Part shown: positions 5,217 through 39,093 of the stretch, piece after piece
Position numbering within the stretch: the stretch's first letter is position 1
Layout of the letters: each line of letters starts with the position of its first letter
Assembly: GCA_016783545.1 (NCBI GenBank)
Contig: JADHWJ010000001.1
Coordinates: 10,369 to 74,368, forward strand
Length of the DNA stretch: 64,000 bases
From: Candidatus Aenigmatarchaeota archaeon
GTDB lineage: Archaea > Aenigmatarchaeota > Aenigmatarchaeia > QMZP01
Direction: 5' to 3'
Notes under the pieces: generated by a model
What the model saw: the letters and a program-made list of their open reading frames with translations, nothing else
Database searches by the model: none
Told to the model about the DNA's origin: nothing
Position numbers and translations under genes: made by a program

Positions 5217-7856
5217 ATGTTAATTCAAATTCTTGATGTTGATTATGTAATGGTTGATGATAAGCCTGTTATAAGAATATTTGGAAAGAATGGAGCAGGG
5301 GAAGCAGTTTGCGGGTTTTATGAAGGGTTTCTACCATATTTTTATGTTGCTGGGGAAAATGCTGAAGAGGTATTGAAAGATGAAGACCTTAATTTTGAAA
5401 AAGTTAAAAGGAATATTATACTGAAGCACGTGCCTCAAGACGTTTTTAAAATTACACTAAAAGATCCATCAAAAACCCCTGAAATCAGGGATAGGTTAAG
5501 ATCAAAGGGTTTGAAACCATACGAGGCTGATATACTTTTTAAATATAGATTTATGTCTGATATGGGCATCAATGGAATGAACTGGATTGATATAACAGGA
5601 CCTGGTATACAGACAGAAAGTGTTTCAATCAACAAAATAATTCAAATAAAGAAAATGAAAGCTGTTGAGAAGACTGGGAATGCCGACCTTAAAACATTGG
5701 CATTCGACTTAGAATGTGTTTCAAATAGAGGGGGCATACCTGAGGCAAAGAGGGATCCTATTGTCATGATATCAATACTTTTTAGTCATGATTATAAAGG
5801 TACGGATAGGATGCTTCTCAGTACAAGGTCTGGAAAAGGTGTAACATATTTTGAAACCGAAAAGGCAATGTTGGAAACATTCATTAAGATTGTCAATGAT
5901 TTTGATGCTGATATTTTAACAGGCTATAACTGCAATAACTTTGATTTTCCTTATACACTAGAAAGAATGAGACAAAACGGTATAAGGGCTATTTTCGGAA
6001 GATGTAAACAAAAAACAGTATTTGCAAAAAGTATTGGTAATAGGCATAAAGTTTATATGACAGGAAGAATGATTGTTGATAGTTATACTATTGTAAAAAA
6101 GGATTTCTCGTTGGTGCGATATGATCTTGGAACTGTTGCAAAAAATCTGTTAAATGAAGAGAAAATTGATGTCAAGCATTCTGAAATCGAAACACTTTGG
6201 AGAGGAAATGATATTGAATTTGAAAGGCTTGCAAAATATGCCATGAGGGATTCTGTTCTTGCGATAAATCTTCTTAGAAAGCTTGATCTTACAAGTAAAT
6301 ATATAGCTCTTTCAAAGATATCCGGTACTCTATTACAGGACACACTTGATGGTGGAGAGACACTTAGGATTGAAAATTATCTTTTAAGAGAGTTTAATAA
6401 AAAAAAATATATATTTCCATGCAAACCAGAACCAGAAGAAATGGGCAGAAGAATGAGGGAAAGGGAAGAAAATTTCTTAAAAGGTGGATATGTTATAGAA
6501 CCAAAGAAAGGTCTGCATTCAAACGTGGTTGTATTAGACTTCAAATCAATGTATCCGTCCATAATCAATACATTTAACATATGTCCAACAACATTGACCA
6601 GAGAAAACGGCGATGATGTGATAAAATCACTGTCAGGTGCAATGTTCTGCAAAAAATCTGTTAAAAAGGGTATAGTTCCTGATGTTCTTGAAAATTTAAT
6701 GAAAAGCAGACAGGCTGTTAAAATGCAGATGAAAAAAGAAACTGATAAGGAAATCATACGGGTTCTAGATGCCCAGCAATGGGCATTGAAGATTATGGCA
6801 AACGCATTTTACGGATATCTTGGTTACCTAAGGGCAAAAGCATACTATATCGACATAGCGAATTCTGTTACATCTTATGGGAGAAATCTTATTCAAAATA
6901 CCTCAAAATCCATTAAAAAAATGGGCTACGAAATCATATACGGTGATACAGATTCTGTAATGGTTCAATCAAAAAAAATAGAACTTGATGATATAGAAAA
7001 GGAAATGGTGAAAATTGTTGATATTATAAATAAAGATCTTGAAGGCATACTTGAACTTGAGTTTGAAAAAATATTCAAAAGATTTTTACCGTTCACTAAA
7101 AAAAGATATGTTGCTTTATGTTTTGAAAGGGATGGTGATAAATGGAAAGAAAAGATGGAAATGAAAGGTGTGGAGACTGTCAGAAGGGACTGGTGCGAAC
7201 TTACATCAGAAACTATGAAGAGGATTGTTGAGATTCTTTTAAAAGAGAATGATGTTAAGGGGGCGGTTAACCACTTTAAAAATGTTATTGGGAAACTTAT
7301 GAAAGGTGAAATAGCTGTGCAAAAACTTGCTGTTACAAAATCCATGTCAAAGTCTCCTGAAAGATATGTAGGCATGCAACCGCACATAGAACTTGTGAAA
7401 AAAATACGAAAAAGAAGCCCTGAGGAAACACCTGGAATCGGCGATAGAATACCTTATGTTATTGTCAAGGGTCTTGGCCTTCTTTCAAAAAGAGCTGAAG
7501 ATCCTATGTATGTAATTGAACATGGCATACAGGTTGACTCTTCATATTATATTGAGAATCAACTTCTTCCACCATTGGAAAGGATATTCACCAGCCTAGG
7601 AATTTTCAAGTCAGAACTTATGGGCAATGGCAAACAGATGGGAATAATGGATGCTATTAAAAATCATGTAAAAGCTGCGAAAGAAACTGAAAAGGAAAAA
7701 GAAATAATAATTTCATCAAAGGAAATGAACGGGTTTGTATGTTCAAAATGCAATGACTTCCATAGAAGGGTTCCACTAGTGGGTGTATGTGAATGCGGCG
7801 GAGAGTTTTTGTTTTCCAGCCCCAAAGGCACTGCCACAACGATTGTTGCTGGGTAG
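5217..7856 (+). CDS. polB: family B DNA polymerase with an extra C-terminal C4 zinc-ribbon extension
   Basis: The N-terminus ILDVDYV..KPVIRIFGK is like archaeal PolB. Exo motifs FDLE and YNCNNFDFPY are present, as are pol motifs SMYPSII (motif A) and YGDTDS (motif C). After the conserved end near YIENQLLPPLERI there are about 90 extra residues containing CSKCNDFHRRVPLVGVCECGG. Confidence 0.9.
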   Translation: MLIQILDVDYVMVDDKPVIRIFGKNGAGEAVCGFYEGFLPYFYVAGENAEEVLKDEDLNFEKVKRNIILKHVPQDVFKITLKDPSKTPEIRDRLRSKGLKPYEADILFKYRFMSDMGINGMNWIDITGPGIQTESVSINKIIQIKKMKAVEKTGNADLKTLAFDLECVSNRGGIPEAKRDPIVMISILFSHDYKGTDRMLLSTRSGKGVTYFETEKAMLETFIKIVNDFDADILTGYNCNNFDFPYTLERMRQNGIRAIFGRCKQKTVFAKSIGNRHKVYMTGRMIVDSYTIVKKDFSLVRYDLGTVAKNLLNEEKIDVKHSEIETLWRGNDIEFERLAKYAMRDSVLAINLLRKLDLTSKYIALSKISGTLLQDTLDGGETLRIENYLLREFNKKKYIFPCKPEPEEMGRRMREREENFLKGGYVIEPKKGLHSNVVVLDFKSMYPSIINTFNICPTTLTRENGDDVIKSLSGAMFCKKSVKKGIVPDVLENLMKSRQAVKMQMKKETDKEIIRVLDAQQWALKIMANAFYGYLGYLRAKAYYIDIANSVTSYGRNLIQNTSKSIKKMGYEIIYGDTDSVMVQSKKIELDDIEKEMVKIVDIINKDLEGILELEFEKIFKRFLPFTKKRYVALCFERDGDKWKEKMEMKGVETVRRDWCELTSETMKRIVEILLKENDVKGAVNHFKNVIGKLMKGEIAVQKLAVTKSMSKSPERYVGMQPHIELVKKIRKRSPEETPGIGDRIPYVIVKGLGLLSKRAEDPMYVIEHGIQVDSSYYIENQLLPPLERIFTSLGIFKSELMGNGKQMGIMDAIKNHVKAAKETEKEKEIIISSKEMNGFVCSKCNDFHRRVPLVGVCECGGEFLFSSPKGTATTIVAG

Positions 7857-10086: not shown

Positions 10087-10310
10087 GTTAGTGTTTTCAA
10101 GATCAGTTTGATATATTATTCTACCCCATTCATCTCTTCCATCATCTGGTTTTTCACAGAGTCGTAATCTTACTGGCTTTAGGAATTCAAAATCATCTGA
10201 CAGATTTAAAAGTACTCCATCTCCACCTAAAATTACTCAAATTTCTCTAATTAGACATTTCATATTACCATGTATTAATTTCCTGTCCTGGTATGAATTT
10301 CATTAAAAAT

Positions 10311-10356
10311 CTCCAGTGGAAGTCAAGGGGTGTTGATTTCTCCACCGGAAGTAAAG
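10311..10356 (+). repeat. pair of ORB-like (origin recognition box) elements
   Basis: CTCCAGTGGAAGTCAAGGGG (10311-10330) and TCTCCACCGGAAGTAAAG (10339-10356) resemble the archaeal ORB consensus: a TCCAGTGGAAA core followed by a G-string. Confidence 0.5.
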
Positions 10357-10551
10357 ATGTTCATATGAATAGTAAACCGATACCATGCAAAAGTCTCCTA
10401 AGGAAACAGAGGGGTATGAAGTAAATATTACTGTATTTTTTGTAATATTACAATTGTTCTAAATTCAATACAAAATCGACAGTATAAGAAATTTTATGAA
10501 GAATATTAACTTATTTTCCACTAGCAATGAAGGGGTGTTAAGTTCATGTGA

Positions 10552-11043: not shown

Positions 11044-11144
11044 TTGTCACTATTTGATAGTAACTGTTGTATAAGGGGTATTTAAAGATTTTAACTGCAC
11101 ACTGTGACCATGTTTTTAGAAATATAACAGTGTTAAGTGGGTGT

Positions 11145-12350
11145 TTAGAGTCTGAAATAGAATATTATAAGCGGCAAGATCAGAACTCCCATTGCACTGC
11201 TCCTTCTTACACCAAATAATGGTGCAAGCAGACCAATTGAAGTTGAAACCCATAGTATGAACAGACCAATTGGACCTGTGAGAATTGTTGTTAACCCCAG
11301 AAGAAAAAATATTATAATAATAGTTAGCATTCCATAATTAATTTTCTGCAAGCCGGTGATAAGCTTTCTCATTAATTTCAATAATATAAACGAAGAAATA
11401 CCTGCTGTAAAAACAGCAACCCCAAACAAAAGTATGAGTTCATTAAAGCTGAAATTAGGCAGTATCTGCTGAACAGCTATTGCTGCGCCTGACCTTGGCT
11501 TCGATATTGTATACAAAGAAATCAAAGAGAAAAGCGCCACTATTGTATTTATTGCACCTATTGAAACCAAGAATTCTTTATGATTCTTTCTTCTTGTTAT
11601 CTGCTGGGTTAAAATAGCTGCCTGGGACGCGCCAACACCAGGAAGTGTTCCTACAATGACTCCGCTAAAAAGACCTTTTACTATTCCTAGTAATGATAGC
11701 CCTTTTTTTATGTTTGGAAATTTGAGATTTTGTTCTGGTATCACTGTTCCCCTGTTAAGACTTATCAATAGGTTATTCATGCCAAAAAGCCCTGTGAATA
11801 AAGGGAACATTATCATATGTGAAGGTAGTATGTAAGAGTTTAGTGTTATGTAACCAAGAGTTCCTGATAATATGAAAATAAAACTAGCTTGTAAAATTTT
11901 CTTTATTTTTCTCTCTGTTGCTATAAGCACAACAGCCATTGTCAATAAAATCCAATGTATGTAGATGTGAATGTTCTGGTAAAATAAAGGAATGAAAAAA
12001 ATAAAAGCCGGAAACAGGATAAATGTAATCAGAACTGAAAAAAGTCCTCCAATAACAGTTAAATACAATGCTTCCAATCCTCTTCCCTCAAGAAGCATCT
12101 TATGTCCAGGAAGAACTGCAAGTGCTGTAGAGTCCTCTGGCGCCCCTAAAAAAATCGAGGGTATGAAATCAAAGAATGTGTGGGATATTGCCATTGCTAT
12201 TATAGCAACTGCAATGAAATATGGATTTATTGTTAAGGAGAGTGGTATTAACAAAAGGCTGATTGTATTTACATGAAGACCTGGTATAATGCCTGTTATT
12301 ATTCCAAGAAAACATCCAAATAAGCTGAAAATCAATATCTCAACTATCAT
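11145..12350 (-). CDS. TctA-family (DUF112) integral membrane transporter subunit
   Basis: 401 aa and polytopic. The motifs GIIPGLHVNT and VGTLPGVGASQAAILT are the duplicated G-x-x-P-G-x-G of the TctA/DUF112 family. Confidence 0.6.
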   Translation of the reverse strand: MIVEILIFSLFGCFLGIITGIIPGLHVNTISLLLIPLSLTINPYFIAVAIIAMAISHTFFDFIPSIFLGAPEDSTALAVLPGHKMLLEGRGLEALYLTVIGGLFSVLITFILFPAFIFFIPLFYQNIHIYIHWILLTMAVVLIATERKIKKILQASFIFILSGTLGYITLNSYILPSHMIMFPLFTGLFGMNNLLISLNRGTVIPEQNLKFPNIKKGLSLLGIVKGLFSGVIVGTLPGVGASQAAILTQQITRRKNHKEFLVSIGAINTIVALFSLISLYTISKPRSGAAIAVQQILPNFSFNELILLFGVAVFTAGISSFILLKLMRKLITGLQKINYGMLTIIIIFFLLGLTTILTGPIGLFILWVSTSIGLLAPLFGVRRSSAMGVLILPLIIFYFRL

Positions 12351-12739
12351 ATCTTCTCAAATTTTCCCTTTCTATAAACTAGCTCTAGTTCACCAGAACC
12401 CTTTGGATATTCATCTATAACTCCATTCATACAGAACATATCCCCACTTTCAATATCATATGGGTCTGTGTCAGTATCAATGAGGTCTTTTACCGTGCTA
12501 TTGAACATGACAAATTTTATTTTTCCTGTATCATCAACTATGTCTAGAAATATGTGTTTATTAGAAACTCTTTTCCCTTCAACAATGCCGCAGATAAAAA
12601 CTCCTTTTCCAACATCTCCAATTACTATTTCCTTTATTTTAATATTCTCAGAACCAATGTAACCAGAAATAAGAAAAAGTACCACCAGACCAACTGAAGA
12701 TGAAAATATTGCAAAATTTCTAAGGGTTTGCTCCCTCAT
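12347..12739 (-). CDS. membrane-anchored OB-fold (tRNA_anti-like) nucleic-acid-binding protein
   Basis: An N-terminal TM segment, then GKGVFICGIVEGKRVSNKHIFLDIVDDTGKIKFVMF, which is typical of an OB-fold barrel. It makes 4-nt overlaps with both neighbours, so it sits in the orc1 operon. Confidence 0.45.
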   Translation of the reverse strand: MREQTLRNFAIFSSSVGLVVLFLISGYIGSENIKIKEIVIGDVGKGVFICGIVEGKRVSNKHIFLDIVDDTGKIKFVMFNSTVKDLIDTDTDPYDIESGDMFCMNGVIDEYPKGSGELELVYRKGKFEKI

Positions 12740-13662
12740 ATAAACTCAACCCCCCTCTTACCCAAGTCCACTAAAACGCCACCGCCACCGCAGGAGATAA
12801 TACTAACACCATTATAATTTCTTGCCCATTTCTTTTCAGAAAGTATCCACATTATATCTGGTATTGGTTCTAAAAGAAAATAGTCTTCCTCTGATTTTAT
12901 CATTTGAGGCTCTGGCTTTAGGTGTCTCTTAACAAGATAATCCACTACTATATTGGGGTTCACATCCTTCTCTGGTTTATAGACAAGAATGTTCATCTCA
13001 TTATTCCCCCTTGATATTGTAATCCATGAAGGGTTTGTGAAGTTTGTGAATACATTTTTTTCCTCCTTACCTTCTTCTGTGAATATGAAGTCTGCCTTTA
13101 ATTCTTTGTTAAGTTTCTTCATAAAAGCCACTTTCACACCATCTATTTTTCTTAGCCTATTTTCTTTTGGAATATTTGGAAATATGATCTTATTTTCAAG
13201 TAATTTTTCCTCTCTTCTCATTCCTTTTACAGCAATCACATCATCAATATCCACTTTATTTTTACTAATAACTTCCACACTTCCTGTCATGTCTTCTAGA
13301 ATAAAACCAGACTCTCTCATTTCCTTTACCATTCCTATTACAGCTACAATGGAAAAGGAGTTTTTTATATTATTTATTGAAACAGGATTAACTTTCTCTA
13401 ATAATATTTTTTTCAATCCATTATACCTATTGTTATAATATTTGATGAAATTTTTTAGAAGAAGTTTTTCCTTCACTACAACTCTTTTTATTTTTACATT
13501 TACTTTAGATTCTTTTTCAATATTCCCAAGAATTGTCTGTTCCTGGTTATCTGCCTTTTTCAGATAGAATTCAATATTTTCTTCATTTATATTTTTTAGA
13601 ACTTCTGGTGATAACAATACACCTTTCTCCACAAAACGCATCACTATTTCTTTCTTTTCCAT
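12736..13662 (-). CDS. PolD small subunit (DP1)-like protein, short and apparently catalytically inactive
   Basis: The N-terminus RFVEKGVLLSPEVL matches the DP1 N-terminal domain. It has an OB-fold (SIVAVIGMVKEMRESGFILEDMTGSVEV). The C-terminus LVKRHLKPEP...PDIMWILSEKKWARNYNGVSIISCGGGGV aligns to the DP1 phosphodiesterase end (RRHLAP...PDIFHTGHVH...NSGTWQ), but the metal-binding His/Asp residues are replaced. Confidence 0.55.
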   Translation of the reverse strand: MEKKEIVMRFVEKGVLLSPEVLKNINEENIEFYLKKADNQEQTILGNIEKESKVNVKIKRVVVKEKLLLKNFIKYYNNRYNGLKKILLEKVNPVSINNIKNSFSIVAVIGMVKEMRESGFILEDMTGSVEVISKNKVDIDDVIAVKGMRREEKLLENKIIFPNIPKENRLRKIDGVKVAFMKKLNKELKADFIFTEEGKEEKNVFTNFTNPSWITISRGNNEMNILVYKPEKDVNPNIVVDYLVKRHLKPEPQMIKSEEDYFLLEPIPDIMWILSEKKWARNYNGVSIISCGGGGVLVDLGKRGVEFI

Positions 13663-13668
13663 TTTATT

Positions 13669-14928
13669 TTATACCATCCCCAATTTATTTTTCTGAGCAT
13701 CTAAAAAGAGATTGTCTGTTAAAAGATAGTTCTCTTTTAAAATCTCCCTAATCTTCTTTAGGATATTTTTTTCAAGGAGAACTTTGATCTCTTTTGACCT
13801 TCCATACCTACCCCTTGATATAATTTTCGTGTTTATTATACTGAGCATATCAAGTTCTCCTATAAGGTCTGATACCCTTCTCTGTGTTAAGACCTTAAGA
13901 CCCTTACTAACACATATTTTTTCATATAAGCTGAAAACATCACCAGTCTGTATGTTTTTGGGGTCTTTTTCAAGGAGCTTTAATATTGCGGCGAGAACTG
14001 CTTGTGATTGCCTTGGTTGGGTTTTTACAATCTCAACTGTTTTATCAGTATCTAATTTATTTTCTGCCTTGTCGAGATGCTCAATATTTATTTTACTATT
14101 TTTTTCTCGTTCAGCAATCTCCCCTGATATTCTTAAAAGATTCAGCGCTTTCCTAGCATCTCCATGTTCCTGTGCTGCGAGTGCGGCGCATTTTGCAATA
14201 ACACCTTCAGCTAAAACACTATCATCAAAGGCAAGCTTGGCCCTTTGGTTTAATATATCTTGTAGCTGGGCAGCGTTGTAGGGTGGAAATATTATTTCCT
14301 CTTCAGAAAGACTGGATTTTACTCTTGGATCCAGATTATCTGTGAATGTTGTATCATTAGATATTCCAATTAAGGAGAGTTTGGTTTCCTTAAGCTCTTC
14401 ATTTATTCTCGTAAATCTATAGAGGATATCATCTCCTATCTTGCTTACCAATGCGTCTATTTCATCTAATATTAAAACAACAACAGATTTCTTTGAGTCC
14501 AGTGTCTCATAAAAGATTTTAAAAACCTCATCTGTTGGTAGTCCTGTATAAGGGATCTTTTTTCCCATTATTCTTAGTATCTCAGCAATCATCCTATACT
14601 CTGTATCAGAAACCTTCTTCAGCTTGCAATTTATATAAATAACTTTTACATTATCTGATATTTTAGAAAGTTCTTTTGTAACATGTTTTGCAACACAGCT
14701 TTTACCAGTACCAACTGTGCCGAAAATGAATGTGTTGCTTACTCTCTGGCCTTTAATACTTGGCGCGAGTATCTTTGCAAGCTGATCTACCTGTTCTTCC
14801 CTATGTGGAATATCGTCTGGTATATACCTATCAGTTAGAAAGTCCCTGTCTTTGAATATTATAATTGATTCAGAAGCATATTTAGTAAATAAATCTTTTA
14901 ATGTTTGTTGTGCCATAAACTCTCCCAT
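13669..14928 (-). CDS. orc1: Orc1/Cdc6 replication initiator (AAA+ ATPase with winged helix)
   Basis: Walker A GTVGTGKS and Walker B ILDEID are present, followed by sensor motifs and a C-terminal winged-helix region. Confidence 0.9.
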   Translation of the reverse strand: MGEFMAQQTLKDLFTKYASESIIIFKDRDFLTDRYIPDDIPHREEQVDQLAKILAPSIKGQRVSNTFIFGTVGTGKSCVAKHVTKELSKISDNVKVIYINCKLKKVSDTEYRMIAEILRIMGKKIPYTGLPTDEVFKIFYETLDSKKSVVVLILDEIDALVSKIGDDILYRFTRINEELKETKLSLIGISNDTTFTDNLDPRVKSSLSEEEIIFPPYNAAQLQDILNQRAKLAFDDSVLAEGVIAKCAALAAQEHGDARKALNLLRISGEIAEREKNSKINIEHLDKAENKLDTDKTVEIVKTQPRQSQAVLAAILKLLEKDPKNIQTGDVFSLYEKICVSKGLKVLTQRRVSDLIGELDMLSIINTKIISRGRYGRSKEIKVLLEKNILKKIREILKENYLLTDNLFLDAQKNKLGMV

Positions 14929-15194
14929 CTTCCAGTGGAAATATTAACAATTTTATTTTAGATCTAAATTTTATAAGCTAGATTTCCGCTGGAAAAATAA
15001 AACACTGTAATAAATTATAATTTTGGAGTGGAAATGGTTTTTCCCTTTATTTTTACTATACCCACACCCACCATTTCCTATGGAGATATAACATAATAAA
15101 ATATAAAATATATTTTATAACAATGTTATATTATAAATAAAAATTTTCGATTTTTATTAAAAGTATTTTCCATGAGAAATCAAGGTCTCGGGGG
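14929..15194. other. candidate replication origin (oriC): ORB-like repeats flanking an AT-rich duplex-unwinding element
   Basis: TCCAGTGGAAA (14931-14941, abutting the orc1 start codon), TTTCCGCTGGAAAAA (14984-14998), TTGGAGTGGAAATGG (15023-15037), TTTCCTATGGAGA (15074-15086) and TTTTCCATGAGAAAT (15176-15190) surround a roughly 85% AT tract at 15087-15170. Confidence 0.6.
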
Positions 15195-15920
15195 TTATTC
15201 TATTTTATTTATCCTTTCAATTAATTCTTCTAGTTTCTGATCTTTGGTGATGACTAGAGGAATACCTTCTGCTTCAGCAATTCTTTTTGCGATTTCATCA
15301 ACTTCCCCTATACCATGAAGAACAACTAAGGCTGGTTTTAGATTAGTTAGTTTAATGGCAACCATTGGCCCTCTTCCTGTAGAAAGTTTTGTAAATATTA
15401 ACGCTCTCTGGGTTGTAGAACCGTATACATTTATCAGTTCTGTTGAAGAAAACTCTGTTATTGCCTTTAAAGAGTCTATTACACTATACCCATAAATCAC
15501 ACCACTACCATTAACAATGGGTTTTGCGTTTATTTTTTTACAAAAATCATTCACATCTATACCAGACGCAAATTCTCTCATATCGATTATAGCGTCTGAT
15601 AAAAGCGGCTGTTCGGTTTTCTTCGAAAATGATTTTAATATCTCTCCACCCACCTTTTTATCTATACTGAGCAAAGCCTCTATATATCTCTTTATTATTT
15701 TTATTCCAGGACTCTTTCTTCTACCAGATTCATAGTCAGATATAACACTTGATGTTATACCTAGCTCTTCAGCAAGTTCTTTCTGGGAGATTTTGAATAT
15801 ATTCCTCCATTTCTTTAAAACACTATTTAAATTATCTGAAAGAACAACCTCCCCTACAATATCCTTTATCAGTCTTTCCCTTCCCAATACATCGTCAGAT
15901 AGCTTAATCATGTTCGACAC
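15195..15920 (-). CDS. HTH (XRE-type) transcriptional regulator with a C-terminal uncharacterised domain (COG1395-like)
   Basis: ISQKELAEELGITSSVISDYESGRR is a classic XRE helix-turn-helix. The 241-aa architecture matches a conserved archaeal regulator family. Confidence 0.6.
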   Translation of the reverse strand: MSNMIKLSDDVLGRERLIKDIVGEVVLSDNLNSVLKKWRNIFKISQKELAEELGITSSVISDYESGRRKSPGIKIIKRYIEALLSIDKKVGGEILKSFSKKTEQPLLSDAIIDMREFASGIDVNDFCKKINAKPIVNGSGVIYGYSVIDSLKAITEFSSTELINVYGSTTQRALIFTKLSTGRGPMVAIKLTNLKPALVVLHGIGEVDEIAKRIAEAEGIPLVITKDQKLEELIERINKIE

Positions 15921-15959: not shown

Positions 15960-18900
15960 TTAGAGCCGCTTTTTATAGATACCTACTGAAAGGATTAGCA
16001 AAAGAATGATTGAAAATTCTTCTAAACCGGAAAACCCTGGTGGGAACCCAATATCTATTCTTACTTCACTTTCATCTTCAAATACCTCACCAGGAGGGAA
16101 CTCAAAAACATCAGATACAGCTATCATCTTCAATTTATAATCTTGGCCAGACTCCCTTGAAGGTATTTCAATGAAAAATCTTTTCCTTTCCCATGGCTGA
16201 AGCACAATATCTTCTATTACCCGTCCTTCTGATTCAACAAACTTTGCCAGGTCATAATCTTCCAAACTTAGGTCAATTGTTTGCGTTTCTCCGAGAAGCT
16301 CCCAAATAGTGACACCGAGTAGATATGTTTCTCCATTTCTGATTACAATATAATTTGAGTCAAATGCAGCCAATGGATGTGTTGTTATTGAATATTCTAT
16401 ATTATTATAATTCTCTGCCCTATCCATTAATTCCACATTTAATTTGACAAGACCTGTTTCATATAATATTTCTATTGGGCAGTTAACACTTCCTCCCCAA
16501 CTATCTCCAGAACCACAATCGTTCCAATCACCACCAGTAGTCCATTTCAAAACACTAACACCAGAGACAGAATCACTTGCATCAATATCCATCTTAACAT
16601 TACCAACATTTCCTGGTATTATTATCCAACCAACCACAGCCTTTATATTATCTATGAATGTTGCTGTATATTCTGGTGGAAGAACGTCTATTGTTGTTCC
16701 CATAAGCCTATTGATGCAATCAGGATCTGCCACATCATCTTCATCACAAACATCTTCAAGTAGTCCATCACTTTCAGAATAAAGACTGAACATAAAGGAG
16801 TAGCTGTCTGTATCACTACCCACCTCATCGTCTGAATCAAAAGTTAAAGATCCTTCAGTGCATTTATCTGGTGTGCATGTAAATTCACCTAAATTAAACC
16901 ACCTAGTCCAAGCAGTCTCTGGACCAGGTCTATTAGGGTTGGGGTTATACCTGTATTTAACAAAAAAGGAGTCCACTGGTGTTCCAGAACCGAATTGTAT
17001 TGGAAATGTAATTTTATTTATCCAATCTGGAAGTCTTGTGAAAAATGATGTCGGAGGGGTAATTACGATTCTTTTTTCCACTGAAACTAGAGGGCCGTCG
17101 TTTCCAACATTATCAAAGGGTTTGCATGTGAATATATATGTTCCTTCATCACCAGCCCAATTGCAAGAGAAATCACCGTTTCCATCCACATCAGCTGTCA
17201 ATATATATGTGAGGTCACCAGACCCATAATTACACATACTATATATATTCAATGGGGTGCCTCCCTCTTCTTTCAGACCAATCTCAAATTCCTTTATCCC
17301 AGATTCATCATCAGTTCCAGTTAGTGGTATAGTAAATGATGACGTAACAGGGGAGTCATCGCCCATTACACATGTTGGCGGGCCCAGGTCAGCGCCCACA
17401 GACTTTTCTTCTTCACCGGTATTTCCAGCCCGGTCAGTTCCTATTAGTTCGAATTTATATAGATAGTTGTTTTGAAGATTATCAAAAACTATTATTTCTC
17501 CAAGGCCAAATAATCCAGGAGTACCAAGTGTTGGTGTGCAGGGGTCTGTTGCTGGAGAACAGCTACCAGATTCTATTGAAATAGGAGTAATACCAAACCC
17601 AGAACCGCCCAGGTCAGAACCAGACCAACTCATGGTGAACGTATCAGCAACCCATGTAATCAGTCCCTCAACATAAAGAGCAGGGGTCACGATTAGAGAG
17701 AAGCTGGGTTCTTGGTTGTCAACCTTTACCTCATTGGTATTGGAAACAGTGACAACACCAAAGTCAGTGAAGATAATGTCAGCCTCAAATTTATAACATT
17801 TACCCGATTCCAGGCCTGTTACTCCAATAATCTCATCAAAAAGTGTTAGTAAGCCACCAACTTGGGTCCTTTCACTATAAGTTCCACACACACCATTAGC
17901 TAATGTCGCTGTCCTTTGGAAAATCTTGAAACCAGTTGAATCTTGATCACTCTTGGTTACAGTAATATCAAGAGTCGTATCCTGGGTAAATCCACCATCA
18001 TAAACTATTGACCCGGTTGCAGTGCCTATTGTTATTGATTTTGTCACCTCCTTTGAATTGTCTGCATTGTCCCATGTGATGGCTTTTATAATATAGCTTG
18101 ACTCTACTATAGTAACACCACAAACAGTCTCTGGAGGCTTTACCTCAACAACACCACTTTCTGGTAAATCACACCCATTATCATTATAATCAACAGTGCA
18201 TTCATCGGATTCATAAATACAGAATCTAGTTTTGTCAATGCCAGAAAGCCCGTCAGACGGTGTTATTTTTACATTAACAAAATCACTTCGAGTACATAGG
18301 TCATCATCACAACCAGTGCCTAAACAACACTCTGCTGCAATAGATGGGTCTGTTATATCTATCTTAACGCTTGTAAGAACAGAATTAGATTCACTTCCAC
18401 TAACATCATTTGCACCAAAATTAAGAAGATCTTCTTGTTCAGAAAGAGTGTTTGTATAATCATATTCATAGGTGCCTTTCATTGTCTTGGTATACCCAAG
18501 AGTTGGATCTGTTAGTTCAACACCATCAACCAGTGGCTCGCAGTCCCCTGAAGTTGCAATGCACATCTTTGTTGCTGCTATGTCATAAGCAGAGCTTACT
18601 GTGACTGTGATGTCCTGATCCTCATTAATCCACACATCATCGCTTCCATAATCCACTTCTAACACAACCCCTGCTGTTGAGACAGGGTCTGATGGGTTTC
18701 CTGCAACATCAATTGCCCTATACACCTTTTTCTTCCCTTCTGGAACAGTCTGGGTGTCATCACTGCAAGATGGATCTCCTTGATCTGGGGCTTCTTCATC
18801 ATTTATTAGGGGACAATTTATTGTTCCTTTCACCCCATCACATGTTCCAGCGCAGTTGCCGGCATCACTCACAGTACAATCGCTTAAAACATCTCCCTGG

Positions 18901-20810
18901 CACCATTTTATTTTCCTCATTCCAGATCCCCCAGCTTCATCGTGCGCTTCTATTTCAAATTCAACACCTGGGAGCACACTCTCTGGTGGTGTTATCACTG
19001 GTGCAATCTTATCTATCTGCACTATGACTGTGGCTGTCTCAAAGTTGTCAAAGCCGTCAGCCGCAGCAGAACAAATAATTACTTTGCTGCTAAGGTCATC
19101 TACTTTACCATCACTTTCATAGTATCCGGGGCTTGGGTATGGTTCTGAATAAGTAACTTTTTCAACATCTGTCCCGCTTAAGAAATCAGCCTTAGAGGGG
19201 CAGCTGACTTCCTTAAAACCAACATCTCTACAACCAACACCATTATCCGGGTCATCACATTTCACTTTAAAGTCTCTGTCAAGGTTGAACCATGGGGTTG
19301 TATCACCATCTTTATAGTTCTCTTTGGTCCCGTCACCATCCATGTCTATCTGGAGCTTGACATTTGGCTTTTCCCTTTCCAGTATTGTAAATTGCCCTTC
19401 AGCTTTGGGAGAACACTCGTGCCAGTAACTTCCCGGAGTATCTTCTGGTATCCTGTTGCAAGATTTCACTTCCCATTCATAATTACCGTATCCAAGCTCG
19501 TTTACATCGTATTTATGTTTGGCTTCATCGAAAACAGCTTCAGGGTCTGCTGGGTTTGGTGTAAAAATTCCTGGAACTATCACTTCCTTTATGTTTTTCA
19601 GGTAAAAATAATACGTGTCAACATAACTGCTATCACTAGCGCGCCACTGGAACTCAACATCCAGATTTCCAGTATCGTCTGTCACTTCCAGCTCGTTTGT
19701 TGGTGCTATTAAAGTTGGTAATTCAGGTACATAGTATTTGGTGATTTTTATCTTGAATGCCGGAGGACCGTAAGAGTCTAGGCCAAGTGAAATACCACCT
19801 GGGGTTTGACTATGCCCATAACTCCATGAAAAATAAAAATTAAAGTCAGTCCCGTCAGACGGGCTTGAAACGTATGGAAGTATTATAAAATATGAATCAA
19901 AATTATACTTCCCAAGGTCATTGGTGAGCCATAAGAAAGTTTTCCATGAAAACCAATCATCAAAATTGACTTGGCTTGGTTCATACTGGAGCCTGTATAT
20001 ATTATTTTCATTATGTGCAAAAGGAGCTGGGTCTGCCCTGAAAACAGTTGGATCTGCTTTCTTTGTGTTTATATTACTACCCCAGTCACTAAAAACTCCA
20101 TCATTGCAATAGTCCCTTCCCTTACACCAGCTTTTTGCTTGGTATTCAAAACCAACTATAGAACCAAGGATTTTATCTGTTGATATTTTAATCCTACATA
20201 ATCTACCTTCATGAATATAATCATGGTTTGCTTTGTTTACCCATTCACATACTTCACAATCATCAGTATCGCATACACAATATTTTTTACATCCATAATA
20301 AACGTCATCTCCACCATCACCTGTAACAGTTCCAGAATTAGCATTGCTTGGAACAAACTCAACCTCAACAGGAGTTGGAAGGTCAACCCATCCAGCATTT
20401 GCAATACCAGAGCTCAGAAGAAAGAAAAATAAAAAAAATATGGGAACATACCCTGCATTGTGATTTATAGCTCCACCCCTTCTGAGTTTTTTAGTAGCTA
20501 AGAAAATAACAAGAATAGCAATCAAAATAATCAATCCCCATAGAATGAATTCATTCCCTTCTACTGGTTCTTCAATTGTTCTGTTGGGTGCTCCAGATAC
20601 CTCTATCCTATTACCATTTTCATCAGCTATGAAATAGCGTTGGTTTTGCTCTATCTCTATACTATCTATTGGGACTTCACTAGAATTAGGAACACATGAA
20701 TCAAGTTCTTCCATATAGACGGTTCCAGTAGGGCAACTCAGCTCTTCAGCCTGAACAAAGACCATGAGCAAAAAAACCGTAAGCAAAAACGAAACTGTTA
20801 TAAATTTCAT
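15960..20810 (-). CDS. giant (1616 aa) Cys/Asp/Gly/Thr-rich cell-surface protein with a C-terminal TM anchor
   Basis: N-terminal signal peptide MKFITVSFLLTVFLLMVFVQA, then a second hydrophobic segment. Long beta-rich repeats follow, with many Cys pairs. The C-terminus FSIILLLILSVGIYKKRL is a TM anchor plus a basic tail. Confidence 0.6.
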   Translation of the reverse strand: MKFITVSFLLTVFLLMVFVQAEELSCPTGTVYMEELDSCVPNSSEVPIDSIEIEQNQRYFIADENGNRIEVSGAPNRTIEEPVEGNEFILWGLIILIAILVIFLATKKLRRGGAINHNAGYVPIFFLFFFLLSSGIANAGWVDLPTPVEVEFVPSNANSGTVTGDGGDDVYYGCKKYCVCDTDDCEVCEWVNKANHDYIHEGRLCRIKISTDKILGSIVGFEYQAKSWCKGRDYCNDGVFSDWGSNINTKKADPTVFRADPAPFAHNENNIYRLQYEPSQVNFDDWFSWKTFLWLTNDLGKYNFDSYFIILPYVSSPSDGTDFNFYFSWSYGHSQTPGGISLGLDSYGPPAFKIKITKYYVPELPTLIAPTNELEVTDDTGNLDVEFQWRASDSSYVDTYYFYLKNIKEVIVPGIFTPNPADPEAVFDEAKHKYDVNELGYGNYEWEVKSCNRIPEDTPGSYWHECSPKAEGQFTILEREKPNVKLQIDMDGDGTKENYKDGDTTPWFNLDRDFKVKCDDPDNGVGCRDVGFKEVSCPSKADFLSGTDVEKVTYSEPYPSPGYYESDGKVDDLSSKVIICSAAADGFDNFETATVIVQIDKIAPVITPPESVLPGVEFEIEAHDEAGGSGMRKIKWCQGDVLSDCTVSDAGNCAGTCDGVKGTINCPLINDEEAPDQGDPSCSDDTQTVPEGKKKVYRAIDVAGNPSDPVSTAGVVLEVDYGSDDVWINEDQDITVTVSSAYDIAATKMCIATSGDCEPLVDGVELTDPTLGYTKTMKGTYEYDYTNTLSEQEDLLNFGANDVSGSESNSVLTSVKIDITDPSIAAECCLGTGCDDDLCTRSDFVNVKITPSDGLSGIDKTRFCIYESDECTVDYNDNGCDLPESGVVEVKPPETVCGVTIVESSYIIKAITWDNADNSKEVTKSITIGTATGSIVYDGGFTQDTTLDITVTKSDQDSTGFKIFQRTATLANGVCGTYSERTQVGGLLTLFDEIIGVTGLESGKCYKFEADIIFTDFGVVTVSNTNEVKVDNQEPSFSLIVTPALYVEGLITWVADTFTMSWSGSDLGGSGFGITPISIESGSCSPATDPCTPTLGTPGLFGLGEIIVFDNLQNNYLYKFELIGTDRAGNTGEEEKSVGADLGPPTCVMGDDSPVTSSFTIPLTGTDDESGIKEFEIGLKEEGGTPLNIYSMCNYGSGDLTYILTADVDGNGDFSCNWAGDEGTYIFTCKPFDNVGNDGPLVSVEKRIVITPPTSFFTRLPDWINKITFPIQFGSGTPVDSFFVKYRYNPNPNRPGPETAWTRWFNLGEFTCTPDKCTEGSLTFDSDDEVGSDTDSYSFMFSLYSESDGLLEDVCDEDDVADPDCINRLMGTTIDVLPPEYTATFIDNIKAVVGWIIIPGNVGNVKMDIDASDSVSGVSVLKWTTGGDWNDCGSGDSWGGSVNCPIEILYETGLVKLNVELMDRAENYNNIEYSITTHPLAAFDSNYIVIRNGETYLLGVTIWELLGETQTIDLSLEDYDLAKFVESEGRVIEDIVLQPWERKRFFIEIPSRESGQDYKLKMIAVSDVFEFPPGEVFEDESEVRIDIGFPPGFSGLEEFSIILLLILSVGIYKKRL

Positions 20811-20888
20811 GTATTATATTTATTCTATTATTGTTAAATAAATCAATTAATTTTTATAAAGTGAATACCATCCAGTCTACTGAACCAA

Positions 20889-21549
20889 TGACTGGTGGTG
20901 GGTATGGGCTTAGTCCATACTATTAGTTCTCAATAAACAAAAAATAAAATGGGGAGTGAAACCTACCCCATTAATTAACAGACTTAATTACTTGTAGGTT
21001 TCGCTTTCTTATAAATCTTTGAGGTGGAAATATGTCAGAGTTTGTTAGAGGTAGCTCCAGCATTTTCAGGCTGGAGGCTCACATATCTTTTAAGGTCAAA
21101 TACTGTCATGATGTATTTGATATTATAGAATTCAAGGAAAGGTGCACTGAGCTGCTGCTGGAAGCAGCAGCTGGTATTGGTATTGAAGTAACAGAACTTG
21201 GCTACGATAGGAATCATGTACATTTAGATATTCGTTGGATGAGGATATGCCTGAGCGTTGACCAAATTTCAAAAAAGCTCAAGGGAACCACTGGAAGGAA
21301 ACTACTAAAAGAGTTTCCTGGTATCAAGAAAAGGTTCTTCTGGGGTTCAGGTCTATGGTCACCTGTTATATACGGTGACTCACTTGGCAAAGACCCAATT
21401 AATATGCATAACTATGTGGCTAACCAAGGAAAGAAAAGCAGCAAGTATACAACTACCTTGGTGAGGTTCTTTAACCAATAATACCACCGGTCTATAGTGA
21501 GCTCACTGATTTAACAGAGGCGAACGGTGACCGGTGGTTGAACCAATGT
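20889..21549 (+). mobile_element. IS200/IS605-family insertion sequence (IS200-type, tnpA only)
   Basis: The tnpA ORF is flanked by a stem-loop GTATGG-GCTTAGT-CCATAC at 20909-20927 and the perfect palindrome AGTGAGCTCACT at 21497-21508. A direct repeat GAACCAATG lies at both boundaries (20890-20898 and 21541-21549). Local GC is higher than the surroundings. Confidence 0.6.
21032..21481 (+). CDS. tnpA: IS200-like Y1 (HUH) transposase TnpA
   Basis: 149 aa with the HUH motif DRNHVHLDI and a C-terminal FWGSGLWSPVIYGDSLG...YVANQ, typical of IS200 TnpA. Confidence 0.8.
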   Translation: MSEFVRGSSSIFRLEAHISFKVKYCHDVFDIIEFKERCTELLLEAAAGIGIEVTELGYDRNHVHLDIRWMRICLSVDQISKKLKGTTGRKLLKEFPGIKKRFFWGSGLWSPVIYGDSLGKDPINMHNYVANQGKKSSKYTTTLVRFFNQ

Positions 21550-21579: not shown

Positions 21580-23229
21580 ATGCAATATTGGGGAGTTTTA
21601 TTAGTCTTTTCTGCATTTTTTATAGCGCTTTCTATTCCAATATATGCCTTTGAGACCTGTTCTGTCAATGTTAAAAGCAAGTATAATCTTCAGCCGCTTG
21701 AAGGAATGCAAGCTGCTATACACGAAGAAAAACTCTTGGGGGCCAACCCATACTGTACCATAATAAATACTGATATGAGTGGCGATGCATCAATTTCCGT
21801 GCCTTGGTCTGTTTCAGGTGATTGCGATTCTGATAAGTGCACAAAATATGAAGCCGTGGCTTATTATCATGGCGAATATGAGACAAAGTCCTTTTCTTCT
21901 GCAGGGAAACTTTATTTCAAAGTGCCTGCTGGAAATATAGATGTTGAAGTCAGGCTTGTTGATAATGCTGGGAATATTGTAACCAGTGGAATAACATCGG
22001 TTTATTTAGGATATGGTGATGGCACTGTTAAGAACACACTCGATGCACAACCACCAACTCAAGGGATTCTTAATACAGTTGTTTATATACCACAGCCAAT
22101 GGGAACTCCGGTAGGTATACACCCAAACCCACAATTTCATTGCCAGGCAGGCATTGGGGACGGCTGTTTTAGGGATATATACACAATGGCAGAGTTGGAT
22201 GATGGGAGTTTCACAAACTGGGAAAAGCTAAGCAGGGTCAATTGGCAAACAATAAACGCTAAGCTATATAAGGAGATAGAGGTAGCCCAAGGAGGCACTG
22301 TTAGTTGCACTGGTGGAACAGGTGAGATAGAAATAGATCTGAAGAGCATAAGAGGGAACAACATAGCTTCTGAAGGTTATAGTTTTAGAATGGTTTGTAA
22401 GTATAAGAGCGGTTTTTTTGGGCAAACTCAGACAGAAGAGCTCAGCCCGGTTTCAGGTACCAGCAGATTTACTGGATTAAAAACAAATTCGGATTTTGAA
22501 TACAGCTATGAAGTTATGTATGGTGCCACTTCAAAGCAGAGAAACAGCGACCTGTCAACAGTGATTGGTAAGGGCAATGCTGGGAGTTTTCCAACAGGCC
22601 AAGACAAAATGAGTCATGAGTATATAGTGAAACCTGATTGTAAGATGTATTGCATTGAAAAGGATCAGGGTACAATTGAGGGCTTGGTTGCCTATATCAT
22701 TGATCCTTTAAGCGAATTAGGTCTTATTGATAAAATTTTAGGCTCGATCATCAATGCCATTACATTTGGACTGACACCAGGTCCGCAGCCAATTAATATA
22801 ATAACTGATATTCTCGGAAACATTGCACATATTGTTGATGCTGTCACATTTGGAAATTTTGGATCAAAGAATTGCAAGCCATTGGAAGACCTTACAGAGG
22901 CTCAAACCGTTGATTATCTAACTACTATCAGGGATACTGTGCTAAAGGATGATGCTGCGCTGACATATTGTTCAATAGAGATTGATGTTAAAGAGGAAAG
23001 TTATGATAAGGAAAATAATGAAGGGAAATATAAGATAGAAATGAACTCAGAGCCAAGGACAGACGACCTGATGAGGGCGATATTCTATTGCCATTTATTG
23101 GGATGCTTTGATTCTGGTGATAGTGAAAGTGGGAGAAAAAATGATGTAGTGCCCGGTAAATGCACACCACCAACTTGTGAATGTCCCCCAGATTCACCAA
23201 ATGAATGTGCGATAAGATGTTGCACTTAA
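21580..23229 (+). CDS. secreted Cys-rich protein (Sec signal peptide)
   Basis: Signal peptide MQYWGVLLVFSAFFIALSIPIYA. The tail is Cys-rich: GKCTPPTCECPPDSPNECAIRCCT. Confidence 0.5.
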   Translation: MQYWGVLLVFSAFFIALSIPIYAFETCSVNVKSKYNLQPLEGMQAAIHEEKLLGANPYCTIINTDMSGDASISVPWSVSGDCDSDKCTKYEAVAYYHGEYETKSFSSAGKLYFKVPAGNIDVEVRLVDNAGNIVTSGITSVYLGYGDGTVKNTLDAQPPTQGILNTVVYIPQPMGTPVGIHPNPQFHCQAGIGDGCFRDIYTMAELDDGSFTNWEKLSRVNWQTINAKLYKEIEVAQGGTVSCTGGTGEIEIDLKSIRGNNIASEGYSFRMVCKYKSGFFGQTQTEELSPVSGTSRFTGLKTNSDFEYSYEVMYGATSKQRNSDLSTVIGKGNAGSFPTGQDKMSHEYIVKPDCKMYCIEKDQGTIEGLVAYIIDPLSELGLIDKILGSIINAITFGLTPGPQPINIITDILGNIAHIVDAVTFGNFGSKNCKPLEDLTEAQTVDYLTTIRDTVLKDDAALTYCSIEIDVKEESYDKENNEGKYKIEMNSEPRTDDLMRAIFYCHLLGCFDSGDSESGRKNDVVPGKCTPPTCECPPDSPNECAIRCCT

Positions 23230-23231
23230 CT

Positions 23232-26200
23232 ATGAACAAAAAAATTAAAGCCCAAGTGGAAATATTGACAATAGTTTTAGTAGCTGCAGGAATAATTGTA
23301 GCTGTAGTGTATGGTGGGACAATGGAAGAGCCGAAAGGAAAATTTGTAGAATCAGCTATAATATCCCTCCAAAATACAATGTGTACAGACCCTGCTAATG
23401 CATATTCATTCTCTGGTGGTGTTAGAACCACATGTACATGTTATCTTGCTTTTCAGCCATACGCAACTTCGTTTTCCACTGCCTATCCTGTTGATGTTGA
23501 ATATCTGGGCCTTGTATGGGAGGGCGCTGAAGGATTCTGTTATGGGCTTCAAATAATACCAGAAGGTGCTGAGCCTGGAATAATGCCACCCGGTGGCGGA
23601 GTAACTCCCCCATCAGGTGAATGCCCTGGTTATGATTGTTCCCCTCATGATGCAAGCAGAGTTAGTAAAAAATTCACTGTTAGCTATAACATCCATCCTA
23701 ATAAAGACAAGAATAATATATTTGGTAATTTGATGGCTAAAGTGAGAATATTGGATGAAAATAGCCCTCCTAATGAAATAGAAATCCTCGATGATGCTGA
23801 TGTTAGTATTGACATACCCAGTAGCTGCAATGCTGTTGGTTCATTAGACTGCAAAGTGGAAGTTTATGTTGATAATCCAGATCCATCGCATATGAAAGAT
23901 GGATATGCTTGGATGTTTTATTTGGGCCAGGCAGCTAAAATTGCTAAAACAGATTGTGATAGTAGCGGAGCATGTGATGGAATAGACTGGGCCGATGGCG
24001 ACGATGTTGATATAGTGGGATTTGAATTTCCAACTTCTACGTTGCCGGTGTTCCCCTTTGGCATGCAGCCAGGAACATTTGAGAGAGCTTTTGATGGTGT
24101 TGAAATCAGAGATTTATGCCTTGAATGGCCTGTTACTGACGGTGAAAGGCTGGAACCAATAACCATTGGTCCCTATTCTGATCCAGTATGTAATTGTAAA
24201 AATCCAGGAGATGGTCCTTATGAGGGATTCCAGAAAGAAGAGAGTGGTAGTGCTCAATGCGTTGAAATTGTTGACACCGGATATGTTAGATTTGAAGACT
24301 ATAACGATGTGGAAACATACGTGTTTTCAAGGGGGGAGAACATGTTCTGCACTGCCCGTATAGACACTTTTAATGATATTGAACCTGTTAATCCAAAAAT
24401 AGAAATTTTAATGGTTAAGGAAGGAGATATTGACAACCCTTTGACAAAAAGCGGCGAAGATGGTAATCCAACCTGTAATTTTAATGAGGACTGTGTAATA
24501 GGATATGATACCCTTGGGATAACAGATTTCAGTTCAGGTCCTGTTAACATTGAGTGTTATGTGAAATACAGCTTTGATGCATGGAATTCCAGGGAATATA
24601 AGAGCATGCCTGAAATGATGTTCCTTAATGGTCCAACCGCTGTTCATCATGTCCCACTGCCCAGTGCGCAGGTTTTCCCATGCCCTGATAAAACCTTAGC
24701 ACAACCTTATCCTAATCCAGAAATACCCGAACTTGGAGAGGAATATTGTGTGTGTGTGGAGAGTGTAACAGTTCCTGATGGAACGTTAGATTTAGATGGT
24801 ACATACGGGCCTGATATGAAGTGTCATATATTACCAATACTCCCAAGTACTATTTTTTATGACGAAGATGGGAATAAAAGGGGAAAAGTCCCGAAAGGCG
24901 ATGTAAGTGTTATAGTGGAGGGAGAAAAATACAAAGACAGTGATGATGTGATTGCCAGGGGATATTTTTATGGCAGGTACGTTTCAGATGATACTGTTAC
25001 ACCACCTGTTGACTGTGAAACAACAATCAATATTAAAAGAATACGTACCGACGCTTCCGGAGCTGAGCAAACAGAGGATTTTGAAGGTACTGATAACTGC
25101 TGCGATGCTAATGAAATATGCGAATTAACTTTCCTTGACGCTGAAACAGAACCATTTGACAAATTTGAGGCCTACATGGCATACAAATTCAAGGTTTGGG
25201 ACGGTGTTAATGAGATTCCAATAACAGGGTACATAGAAGGCGACACTTTAGCCATGGGAATAGGTGACACGTCAGAGGCAGAAGTTGCTCCCTGTCCGGA
25301 TGGATTTGAAACATCTATATATACAGATGCTGTTGGTATTGGTTATAACATATGCATTTGTGGTGATCAGAACGAAGGCTTTACAAGACCAAAGATAGGT
25401 GACGATGATGGTGTTTGCGTCAAGTCAGATATTGAAAATATGAGGTATGGAGATCTTTACACAGAAGAAATCATAGGATTTATGCCTGCTGGTGGTAACT
25501 ATTACACATCTGAAATTCAACCAAAATGTATAGCAGATATTGAAATTGAGAACGGGGAGATAGACAGTGATACTATTGTAGAAGTGAAAGGATTTTTGGA
25601 AGCGGTTGAATATGGGGATGATACTGTAGTGCAGGATTATACTCAAATGTGTGATATTTCACAAGCTGAATGCACTGTTAGTCTTTCTCCACAATCTAAA
25701 TTTCTGTATACAAAATGCAAGTTTAATGAGGATATTTTAACTTGGAGTGGAAAAGCAGACATAACAATTAGAAAACCTATTCAATTTCAACAAATCCAAC
25801 CAGAAGAAAGTATAATGATTATACCGGTTGGTTATATTAAGGGAACTATAAAAGGATGTAGAGATGTTAAAGGAGTTAGAACATGCGCAGAATTGGAAGA
25901 TGTTGAAATAAAATTAATTAGCAGCCAGGTAAATCCACATAAGGTGTGTAATGAATTCCCATGTAATGAAATAGCTGGCGTAACCGATGCAAACGGAAAC
26001 TTTGATATCGGGCCGATATATTCCCAATTTGATGATACTGATAAATTCCTTTTCAGGTTGATGGTTAACTCAGGTGGCATGGAATATTTCTGGGACGGTA
26101 ACCAAATAATGAATGATACTATCTGGGAGACGTTTAATATCCCTTTGAATAGTTATAAAGATTTTGGTGTTTTGGAAATTGAAATGCCTCCGTGCAAAAA

Positions 26201-38361: not shown

Positions 38362-38498
38362 AACCTTTATAAGCCATAATGACCTATATCAGATAATAAT
38401 ACAAGCAATATTCGCTTTTTTTTGCTGTATTATAATCATCACAAACTAGAAAGTTTGTGCATGTAAATCATTGCCATAAGGCATTAAGGAGTAAACAT

Positions 38499-39035: not shown

Positions 39036-39093
39036 ACCATTTAAATAAAAATTAATTGAATAATAATACAAATTAAGGAATTTTTTTGATTAC

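Follow-up and report, generated by a model that had tools for sequence, protein, structure and literature searches.

The question raised by this locus is whether the DNA directly upstream of an archaeal orc1/cdc6 initiator gene is a chromosomal replication origin or only the control region of that gene. The locus lies in a 64-kb stretch of contig JADHWJ010000001.1 (the window; GC 36%) from a Candidatus Aenigmatarchaeota archaeon, a member of DPANN, where a gap of 266 bp (14929-15194) separates the 3' end of a helix-turn-helix (HTH) gene from the 5' end of orc1. This gap had been proposed to be a probable oriC, carrying five copies or variants of the origin recognition box (ORB) around an AT-rich tract. 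The analyses presented here indicate that the chromosome of this DPANN (Aenigmatarchaeota-related) archaeon probably has an oriC1-type origin whose core is at positions 15060-15195, directly upstream of its initiator gene. The sequence-level hallmarks of oriC1 are all present: an adjacent gene of the Orc1-1 type, full ORBs in inverted orientation, the least stable AT tract between them, and additional mini-ORBs.

ORBs were scored with a position weight matrix (PWM) trained only on orc1-upstream regions of other genomes; the comparison set comprised 80 orc1 loci from other DPANN genomes, 65 of which had enough upstream sequence. Over these 65 DPANN loci, a permissive seed pattern (TCC-N4-G-N-A-N5-GGGK) gave 81 matches within 600 bp upstream of orc1, corresponding to 2.08 per kb versus 0.058 per kb elsewhere (36-fold). 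The ORB consensus of the other DPANN loci, TTCCAyanGAAAyaaaGGGGTG, was also conserved (83-98%) at positions that the seed had left free (A+3, 98%; A+8, 96%; A+10, 94%; T+19, 84%) and, judged by its sequence, is the classical ORB. The PWM scan of the 64 kb revealed precisely five sites scoring 12 bits or more, compared to 0.12 expected from shuffles, at 15084 (-), 15169 (+), 10312 (+), 10396 (+), and 10517 (+). All of them belong to two clusters, one upstream of orc1 and one at 10310-10537 (cluster 2), and the seven highest mini-ORB scores of the window also fell within these two clusters. Random scatter of the motif over intergenic sites, the outcome that had been named as fatal to an origin, was not found; that refuting condition is triggered in part by the second, higher-scoring cluster, which is conserved in the lineage.

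The two orc1-proximal sites retained by the PWM, here named ORB D and ORB E, are inverted on either side of a duplex unwinding element (DUE), with their dyads proximal to the AT tract and their G-strings (CTCCATAGGAAATGGTGGGTGTGGGT and TTCCATGAGAAATCAAGGTCTCGGGGGT) distal to it. ORB D scored 16.2 bits with the foreign-genome PWM and 20.1 bits over its mini-ORB part, and it includes the 11-mer TCCATAGGAAA at 15074-15084 (-); its double G-string frame was also present in 12 other loci. ORB E scored 14.6 bits, includes the 11-mer TCCATGAGAAA at 15169-15179, and showed 21/28 identity to ORB1 of Pyrococcus furiosus, which binds Cdc6 in vitro (sequence from PMC1904270). The full-ORB nature of both sites, given by the G-strings, was absent from the original prediction. 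The AT tract it described is real: positions 15093-15167 contain 93% A+T against 64% overall and rank first among the 60-, 75- and 100-bp segments of the 64 kb, and the DUE tract was the least stable duplex of the window by nearest-neighbour free energy at 50, 75, and 100 bp. Only the last two of the proposed repeats flank this tract, the other three being located on its orc1 side.

The same geometry was recovered in the relatives. Of the 65 DPANN loci, 47 carry an inverted (-,+) ORB pair no further than 700 bp from orc1, with a median spacer of 118 bp and 81% A+T between the pair, compared to 60% for the loci overall. In two of the closest relatives the pair is positioned at -258/-155 (L002) and -240/-138 (L012), and in the window at -241/-156. 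The ORB-DUE-ORB module of the window measures 136 bp, which matches in size the ORB3-DUE-ORB2 core of Sulfolobus islandicus oriC1. That core is of approximately 130 bp and each of its ORBs is individually essential; an oriC1 core functions only if its DUE is flanked on either side by ORBs in inverted orientation (PMC12141716). In addition, a complete DPANN genome has a skew-defined origin beside cdc6 (PMC5905446).

The gene itself agrees with this assignment. As originally stated, the gap immediately precedes a genuine orc1/cdc6 gene, an identity supported by Pfam (domains Cdc6_C, Cdc6_lid, and AAA_22) and by the NCBIfam ORC1-type equivalog NF001625 (501.8 bits). The best relatives in the PDB were S. 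solfataricus Orc1-1 (2QBY_A, 1e-108) and Aeropyrum pernix ORC1 (2V1U_A, 6e-95), both ORB-binding initiators crystallised on origin DNA, while the match to Orc1-3 was much weaker (3e-42) and Orc2 was likewise far less similar. On these sequence comparisons, the encoded initiator is full-length and of the Orc1-1 class, not Orc1-2-like or Orc1-3-like. Proteins of Candidatus Aenigmatarchaeota metagenome-assembled genomes (MAGs) share 61-63% identity with this Orc1, and those of other DPANN lineages come next. Together with the inverted ORBs, the least stable tract and the geometry shared by the other loci, the Orc1-1-type gene supports the proposal of an oriC. The features of the locus and of cluster 2 are listed below.

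Coordinates of the orc1-proximal origin region, its neighbouring genes and the second ORB cluster in the window
Feature	Position	Strand	Sequence	Remarks
Cluster 2 ORB a	10310-10332	+	TCTCCAGTGGAAGTCAAGGGGTG	PWM 30.4 bits
Cluster 2 mini-ORB a'	10339-10351	+	TCTCCACCGGAAG	No G-string; full PWM 10.3 bits, mini-ORB matrix 14.5 bits
Cluster 2 ORB b	10394-10416	+	TCTCCTAAGGAAACAGAGGGGTA	PWM 21.0 bits
Cluster 2 spacer (ORB b to ORB c)	10417-10514			82% A+T, without the palindrome element
Cluster 2 ORB c	10515-10537	+	TTTCCACTAGCAATGAAGGGGTG	PWM 29.4 bits
orc1/cdc6 initiator gene	13669-14928	-		419 aa, Orc1-1 type by Pfam, NCBIfam and PDB matches
Mini-ORB 1	14930-14942	+	TTCCAGTGGAAAT	Perfect match to the Thermococcales-type 13-bp mini-ORB; 1 base from orc1 ATG
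AT spacer	14943-14981	-	TTATAAAA, TAAAATAAAA (TATA-like boxes)	39 bp, ~85% A+T
Mini-ORB 2	14982-14994	-	TTCCAGCGGAAAT	1 mismatch; mini-ORB matrix 16.5 bits
Weak half-site	15024-15034	+	TGGAGTGGAAA	GTGGAAAT half only; 2 mismatches; <9 bits with mini-ORB matrix
Full ORB D	15060-15086	-	TCTCCATAGGAAATGGTGGGTGTGGGT	Dyad and double G-string; polarity toward orc1
DUE	15087-15166			80 bp, ~92% A+T, between ORB D and ORB E
Palindrome	15116-15130		TATAACAATGTTATA	Perfect 7-1-7 palindrome at DUE centre; member of conserved ATATAACAnTGTTATAT element
Full ORB E	15167-15195	+	TTTCCATGAGAAATCAAGGTCTCGGGGGT	Polarity away from orc1; G-string abuts the HTH gene stop codon
HTH_3 gene	15195-15920	-		Same strand as orc1, tandem; stop codon abuts ORB E

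Four of the five proposed repeats in the gap, those inside ORB D and ORB E included, could be counted as solid (14930, 14982, 15074, and 15169). The site at 15024 was downgraded, as it lacks the TCC half and falls below the threshold of the independent mini-ORB matrix, and it is possibly a chance match. Mini-ORB 1 scored 15.5 bits with the mini-ORB matrix and is not followed by a G-string; its position at the orc1 start codon was confirmed. The TATA-like boxes are located 23-48 nt upstream of the orc1 ATG, and the sequence between the convergent mini-ORBs 1 and 2 is likely the orc1 promoter. An ORB at most 25 bp from the predicted orc1 start is also present in about ten other loci, and autoregulation of orc1 through the ORB adjacent to its start codon is plausible. 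Scans of the window for tRNA genes and with Rfam gave no match, and the repeats are therefore not parts of RNA genes. The HTH regulator had been described as divergent from orc1; it lies in tandem with it.

A further element was identified in the middle of the DUE, a palindrome of 15-17 bp written as TATAACAnTGTTATA. Twenty-three of the 80 loci, from Aenigmatarchaeota and Nanohaloarchaeota, carry its core, TAACANTGTTA, no more than 700 bp upstream of orc1, at a density of 0.63 per kb in orc1-upstream DNA versus 0.009 per kb elsewhere (68-fold). Bases beyond the searched core were also conserved, giving the longer element ATATAACAnTGTTATAT, and the 17-mer at up to two mismatches occurred in 22/65 orc1-upstream regions compared to 8/846 control chunks. 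The palindrome is located between the inverted ORBs. The distances from its centre to the ORBs cluster at 33-37, 44-45, and 53-55 nt toward orc1 and, in the opposite direction, at 42-46, 53-57, and 73-76 nt, which are roughly helical steps of ~10 bp; the distances in the window are 39 and 46.

A second palindrome, TTCWATATWGAA (typically TTTCTATATAGAAAA), occupies the middle of the spacer in 19 Woese-, Pace- and Nanoarchaeota-type loci (L008, L020, L026, L035-L039, L041-L043, L045, L047, L050, L053, L059, L067, L069, and L077). Its density was 0.40 per kb upstream of orc1 versus 0.0026 per kb elsewhere (~150-fold), and it never co-occurs with the first palindrome. In the searchable literature, neither palindrome was found in an archaeal context, and no combination of DPANN with "origin recognition box" was found. 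The HTH_3 neighbour was considered as the binder of the first palindrome and found no support: tblastn detected homologues near orc1 in only eight loci, which belong without exception to the group of closest matches (mostly Aenigmatarchaeota), and none in the palindrome-bearing Nanohaloarchaeal loci.

The following sequence of events is proposed for the core. Orc1-1-type monomers would bind ORB D and ORB E with opposite polarity, each placing its winged helix on the TCCA...GAAA dyad at the mini-ORB positions and directing the initiator-specific motif (ISM) of its AAA+ domain toward the G-string. Solved Orc1-DNA complexes show winged-helix and AAA+ ISM contacts of this kind (PMC3089459). Both complexes would deform the DNA and, when bound to ATP, would recruit MCM onto the 80-bp, 92% A+T DUE. 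The palindrome TATAACAATGTTATA in the middle of the DUE, analogous in position to the ucm/UBP element of Sulfolobus oriC1, may be recognised by a further DNA-binding factor, probably a dimer, working together with Orc1. Orc1 bound to the convergent mini-ORBs at 14930 and 14982 would occlude the TATA-like orc1 promoter and so repress its own gene. The three to four direct ORBs at the distal end of the orc1 operon (10310-10537) would serve as an accessory Orc1-binding cluster and not as an independent bidirectional origin.

The role of this second cluster is the least secure part of the interpretation. Cluster 2 consists of three full ORBs and one mini-ORB, all on the plus strand, within a 465-bp non-coding gap (10087-10551) at 4.4-4.6 kb from the orc1 start. 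The genes between it and orc1 are co-directional and encode the DP1-like protein (12736-13662), the OB-fold protein, TctA, and two small open reading frames (ORFs). In approximately 11 Aenigmatarchaeota relatives, one to three ORBs were found in the gap at the 3' end of polB (+2.2 to +6.2 kb), usually between convergent TctA and polB, while in the window polB (5217-7856) is separated from the cluster by ~2.4 kb of extra genes. Because this position between gene 3' ends is conserved in most relatives, a role related to replication rather than to a promoter is suggested for the cluster. It was rated as accessory, by analogy with the second ORB cluster beside cdc6 in Thermococcales, and not as a separate bidirectional origin, since its ORBs are mostly direct, its AT enrichment is modest, and the DUE palindrome is absent.

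An explanation of the locus that is unlikely, and yet survives better than the others, reverses these roles: cluster 2 would be the real or an additional independent origin, and the orc1-proximal sites would be mainly operators for orc1 autoregulation. Cluster 2 holds the three best ORB scores of the window, its non-coding gap has an 82% A+T spacer between ORB b and ORB c, its position is kept in the relatives just mentioned, and multiple origins are known in archaea (PMC4010727). However, its ORBs all run in the same direction in the window and likewise in most relatives, while oriC1 cores need inverted ORBs (PMC12141716). The stability of its spacer is unexceptional (-79 kcal/mol per 75 bp, compared to -70 for the orc1-proximal DUE), the AT enrichment at the equivalent position in relatives is small, and no DUE palindrome occurs there. 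The feature conserved across DPANN is the inverted ORB/AT-spacer/ORB module upstream of orc1, and the second cluster of Pyrococcus, which binds Cdc6, was described as separate from oriC (PMC1904270).

It is considerably less probable that the gap is only an orc1 promoter/operator region, with ORB-like sites for transcriptional control by Orc1 and with replication starting elsewhere or driven by recombination. In favour of this reading, mini-ORB 1 sits next to the start codon, and the TATA-like sequence lies between mini-ORBs 1 and 2. Orc1 paralogues, for example the non-initiator Orc1-2 of Sulfolobus, can regulate transcription (PMC9738581), and origin-independent replication exists in some archaea (PMC5663688). 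Nevertheless, at 130-270 bp from the ATG, the AT tract and its flanking pair of inverted full ORBs are too far upstream for a normal archaeal core promoter. The protein resembles Orc1-1 and not Orc1-2 or Orc1-3, and the geometry fits that of mapped origins. In addition, cluster 2 lies between gene 3' ends in the relatives, where no promoter is expected.

Some archaeal mobile elements carry Orc1 genes, and matches to the 11-mer at up to two mismatches are common in the window (40 versus 24 expected). Still, chance clustering of a short AT-compatible motif in AT-rich intergenic DNA, or an origin that belongs to an integrated plasmid or virus and not to the chromosome, is highly improbable and was rejected on statistics and synteny: the window has four distinct sites at up to two mismatches to the earlier 11-mer within 270 bp, a cluster that only 2 of 300 Markov-randomised versions of it contained, the five PWM sites far exceed the number expected, conservation over the 65 loci is strong, and the order orc1, DP1-like, OB, TctA, polB is shared with relatives that are MAG chromosomes of 0.6-1.1 Mb.

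Several observations weigh against the assignment of the origin to the orc1-proximal core. The comparison loci share ancestry, and the locus counts, those of the palindrome included, are thus not independent events and are overstated as such. The ORBs that flank the DUE scored 14.6 and 16.2 bits compared to 21-30 bits for the ORBs of cluster 2, which by motif strength alone looks like the better Orc1 target because of its higher PWM scores. Two more copies of the palindrome occur in the window (11122-11138 and 38714-38730), both intergenic and one of them a perfect 17-mer inside a 730-bp gap (38362-39093) without an ORF of at least 100 aa; the palindrome could accordingly be an ordinary transcription-factor operator, or its binder may have other targets too, by analogy with UBP in Sulfolobus. 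Replication that does not use the ORB-bearing origins is possible in Thermococcus kodakarensis and Haloferax volcanii (PMC5663688, PMC4010727), and for this reason an origin-like locus does not prove its use. Finally, GC skew, computed over the 64 kb in raw, cumulative and coding-strand-corrected form and with a breakpoint scan, tracked the coding strand (r = 0.89), and after coding-strand regression the residual step was small and positive, with a flat optimum over 16-29 kb. Because the skew follows the coding strand and the residual step is broad, GC skew of these 64 kb is uninformative on the position of the origin. The second most AT-rich 60-bp stretch of the window (20801-20860) coincides with a divergent gene-strand switch (20810-21032) and with the minimum of the cumulative GC skew. 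The ORB matrix gave no site of at least 6 bits at 20810-21032, and this minimum is therefore a coding-strand effect and not an origin signal.

Three kinds of characterised origin come closest to the one proposed here. Resemblance to oriC1 of Sulfolobus and Aeropyrum extends from the nearest initiators (S. solfataricus Orc1-1 and A. pernix ORC1) to the ORB consensus, with its dyad and a GGGGT 15 nt from the TCC, and to the inverted ORB pair around an AT-rich DUE in a ~130-bp module directly upstream of orc1 (PMC12141716). The G-strings of the window differ in being doubled and degenerate, its extra mini-ORBs overlap the putative orc1 promoter, and a second ORB cluster lies 4.5 kb away. Sulfolobus oriC1 also has an extra conserved motif within the DUE between the inverted ORBs, and this accessory motif was reported as essential for oriC1 firing in Sulfolobus (2025). 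There it is the 11-bp ucm, bound by a UBP monomer, whereas the motif of the window is a palindrome of 15-17 bp, which suggests a different, dimeric binder; an analogy with ucm/UBP is claimed and not membership. With the oriC of Thermococcales (Pyrococcus abyssi and P. furiosus), the window shares a mini-ORB identical in type (TTCCAGTGGAAAT), the long spacing of ORB E to its G-string together with the likeness to ORB1 of P. furiosus, the gene order oriC, cdc6, dp1(-like), and the location of cdc6 between two ORB clusters, the second of which binds Cdc6 in vivo in Thermococcales (PMC1904270). The second cluster of Thermococcales is inside dp1, however, while cluster 2 is intergenic and beyond the DP1-like, OB and TctA genes; the dp1 homologue of the window is a truncated 308-aa remnant, and its mini-ORBs are far fewer. 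Haloarcula hispanica oriC1 is alike in its inverted ORBs with extended G-strings, in a DNA polymerase gene in the conserved neighbourhood, and in having lineage-specific accessory repeats (PMC4010727). Its accessory element is a G-rich inverted repeat inside each ORB, in contrast to the A/T-rich DUE palindrome of the window, and the base composition of haloarchaeal oriC1 is very different.

The orc1-adjacent origin is in itself canonical, as a specialist would expect beside orc1, and its chief use is in orienting and annotating DPANN genomes, which at present are rotated to orc1 without cis-element evidence (bioRxiv 10.64898/2026.05.13.725050). The palindrome appears to be undescribed, and its conservation in the DUE, together with that of the second ORB cluster, makes this origin a modestly novel variant. 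What the comparison yielded beyond the locus is a DPANN-wide ORB consensus and two DUE palindromes that exclude each other and are helically phased with respect to the ORBs. A DUE palindrome in uncultivated, host-dependent archaea offers a DNA bait for new origin factors and for replication control in reduced genomes. A more speculative extension, which we regard as possible but less than probable, is that DPANN orc1-adjacent origins have a third obligatory part, a lineage-specific mid-DUE palindrome helically phased to the ORBs (ATATAACAnTGTTATAT in Aenigmatarchaeota/Nanohaloarchaeota, TTCWATATWGAA in the Woese-, Pace- and Nanoarchaeota-type loci). It would be bound by a dimeric factor that cooperates with Orc1 in origin opening or MCM release, and the ORB cluster at the polB end would pair with oriC to loop out the island of replication genes. 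If true, the ucm/UBP principle known from Sulfolobus would become a general rule for origins in archaea.

Further observations concern the genes around the origin. The DP1-like gene (12736-13662, -) directly follows orc1 and encodes 308 aa; its match to NCBIfam NF003118 (PolD small subunit DP1) covers residues 5-181, that is, the N-terminal/OB part only, and is far under the cut-off. The protein is too short to hold the phosphoesterase domain, and a PDB search with it gave no significant match. Homologues were detected by tblastn in 51 of the 80 loci, downstream of orc1 in most of them. A family-B polymerase is encoded by polB, no DP2 was seen in the window, and the 308-aa gene may be a DP1 remnant working with PolB. 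The 130-aa protein at 12347-12739 (-) combines an N-terminal hydrophobic segment with an OB-fold of the tRNA_anti-codon type, and its gene overlaps each neighbour by 4 bp within the orc1 operon; tblastn revealed homologues in L001-L003 and L074, with a matching position in L001-L003. Elsewhere in the window, an 861-aa ORF (55025-57610, -) has a FAD_binding_3/lycopene-cyclase-like N-terminus and an intein splicing domain at residues 259-776, and appears to be an intein-containing flavoprotein. Four large ORFs, at 15960-20810 (-), 23205-26558, 43303-46614, and 61058-63997 (1616, 1117, 1103, and 979 aa, respectively), showed no significant Pfam match; the 1616-aa product starts with a signal-like segment and is rich in Cys, Asp, and Gly, and these large proteins are probably surface or host-interaction proteins of DPANN.

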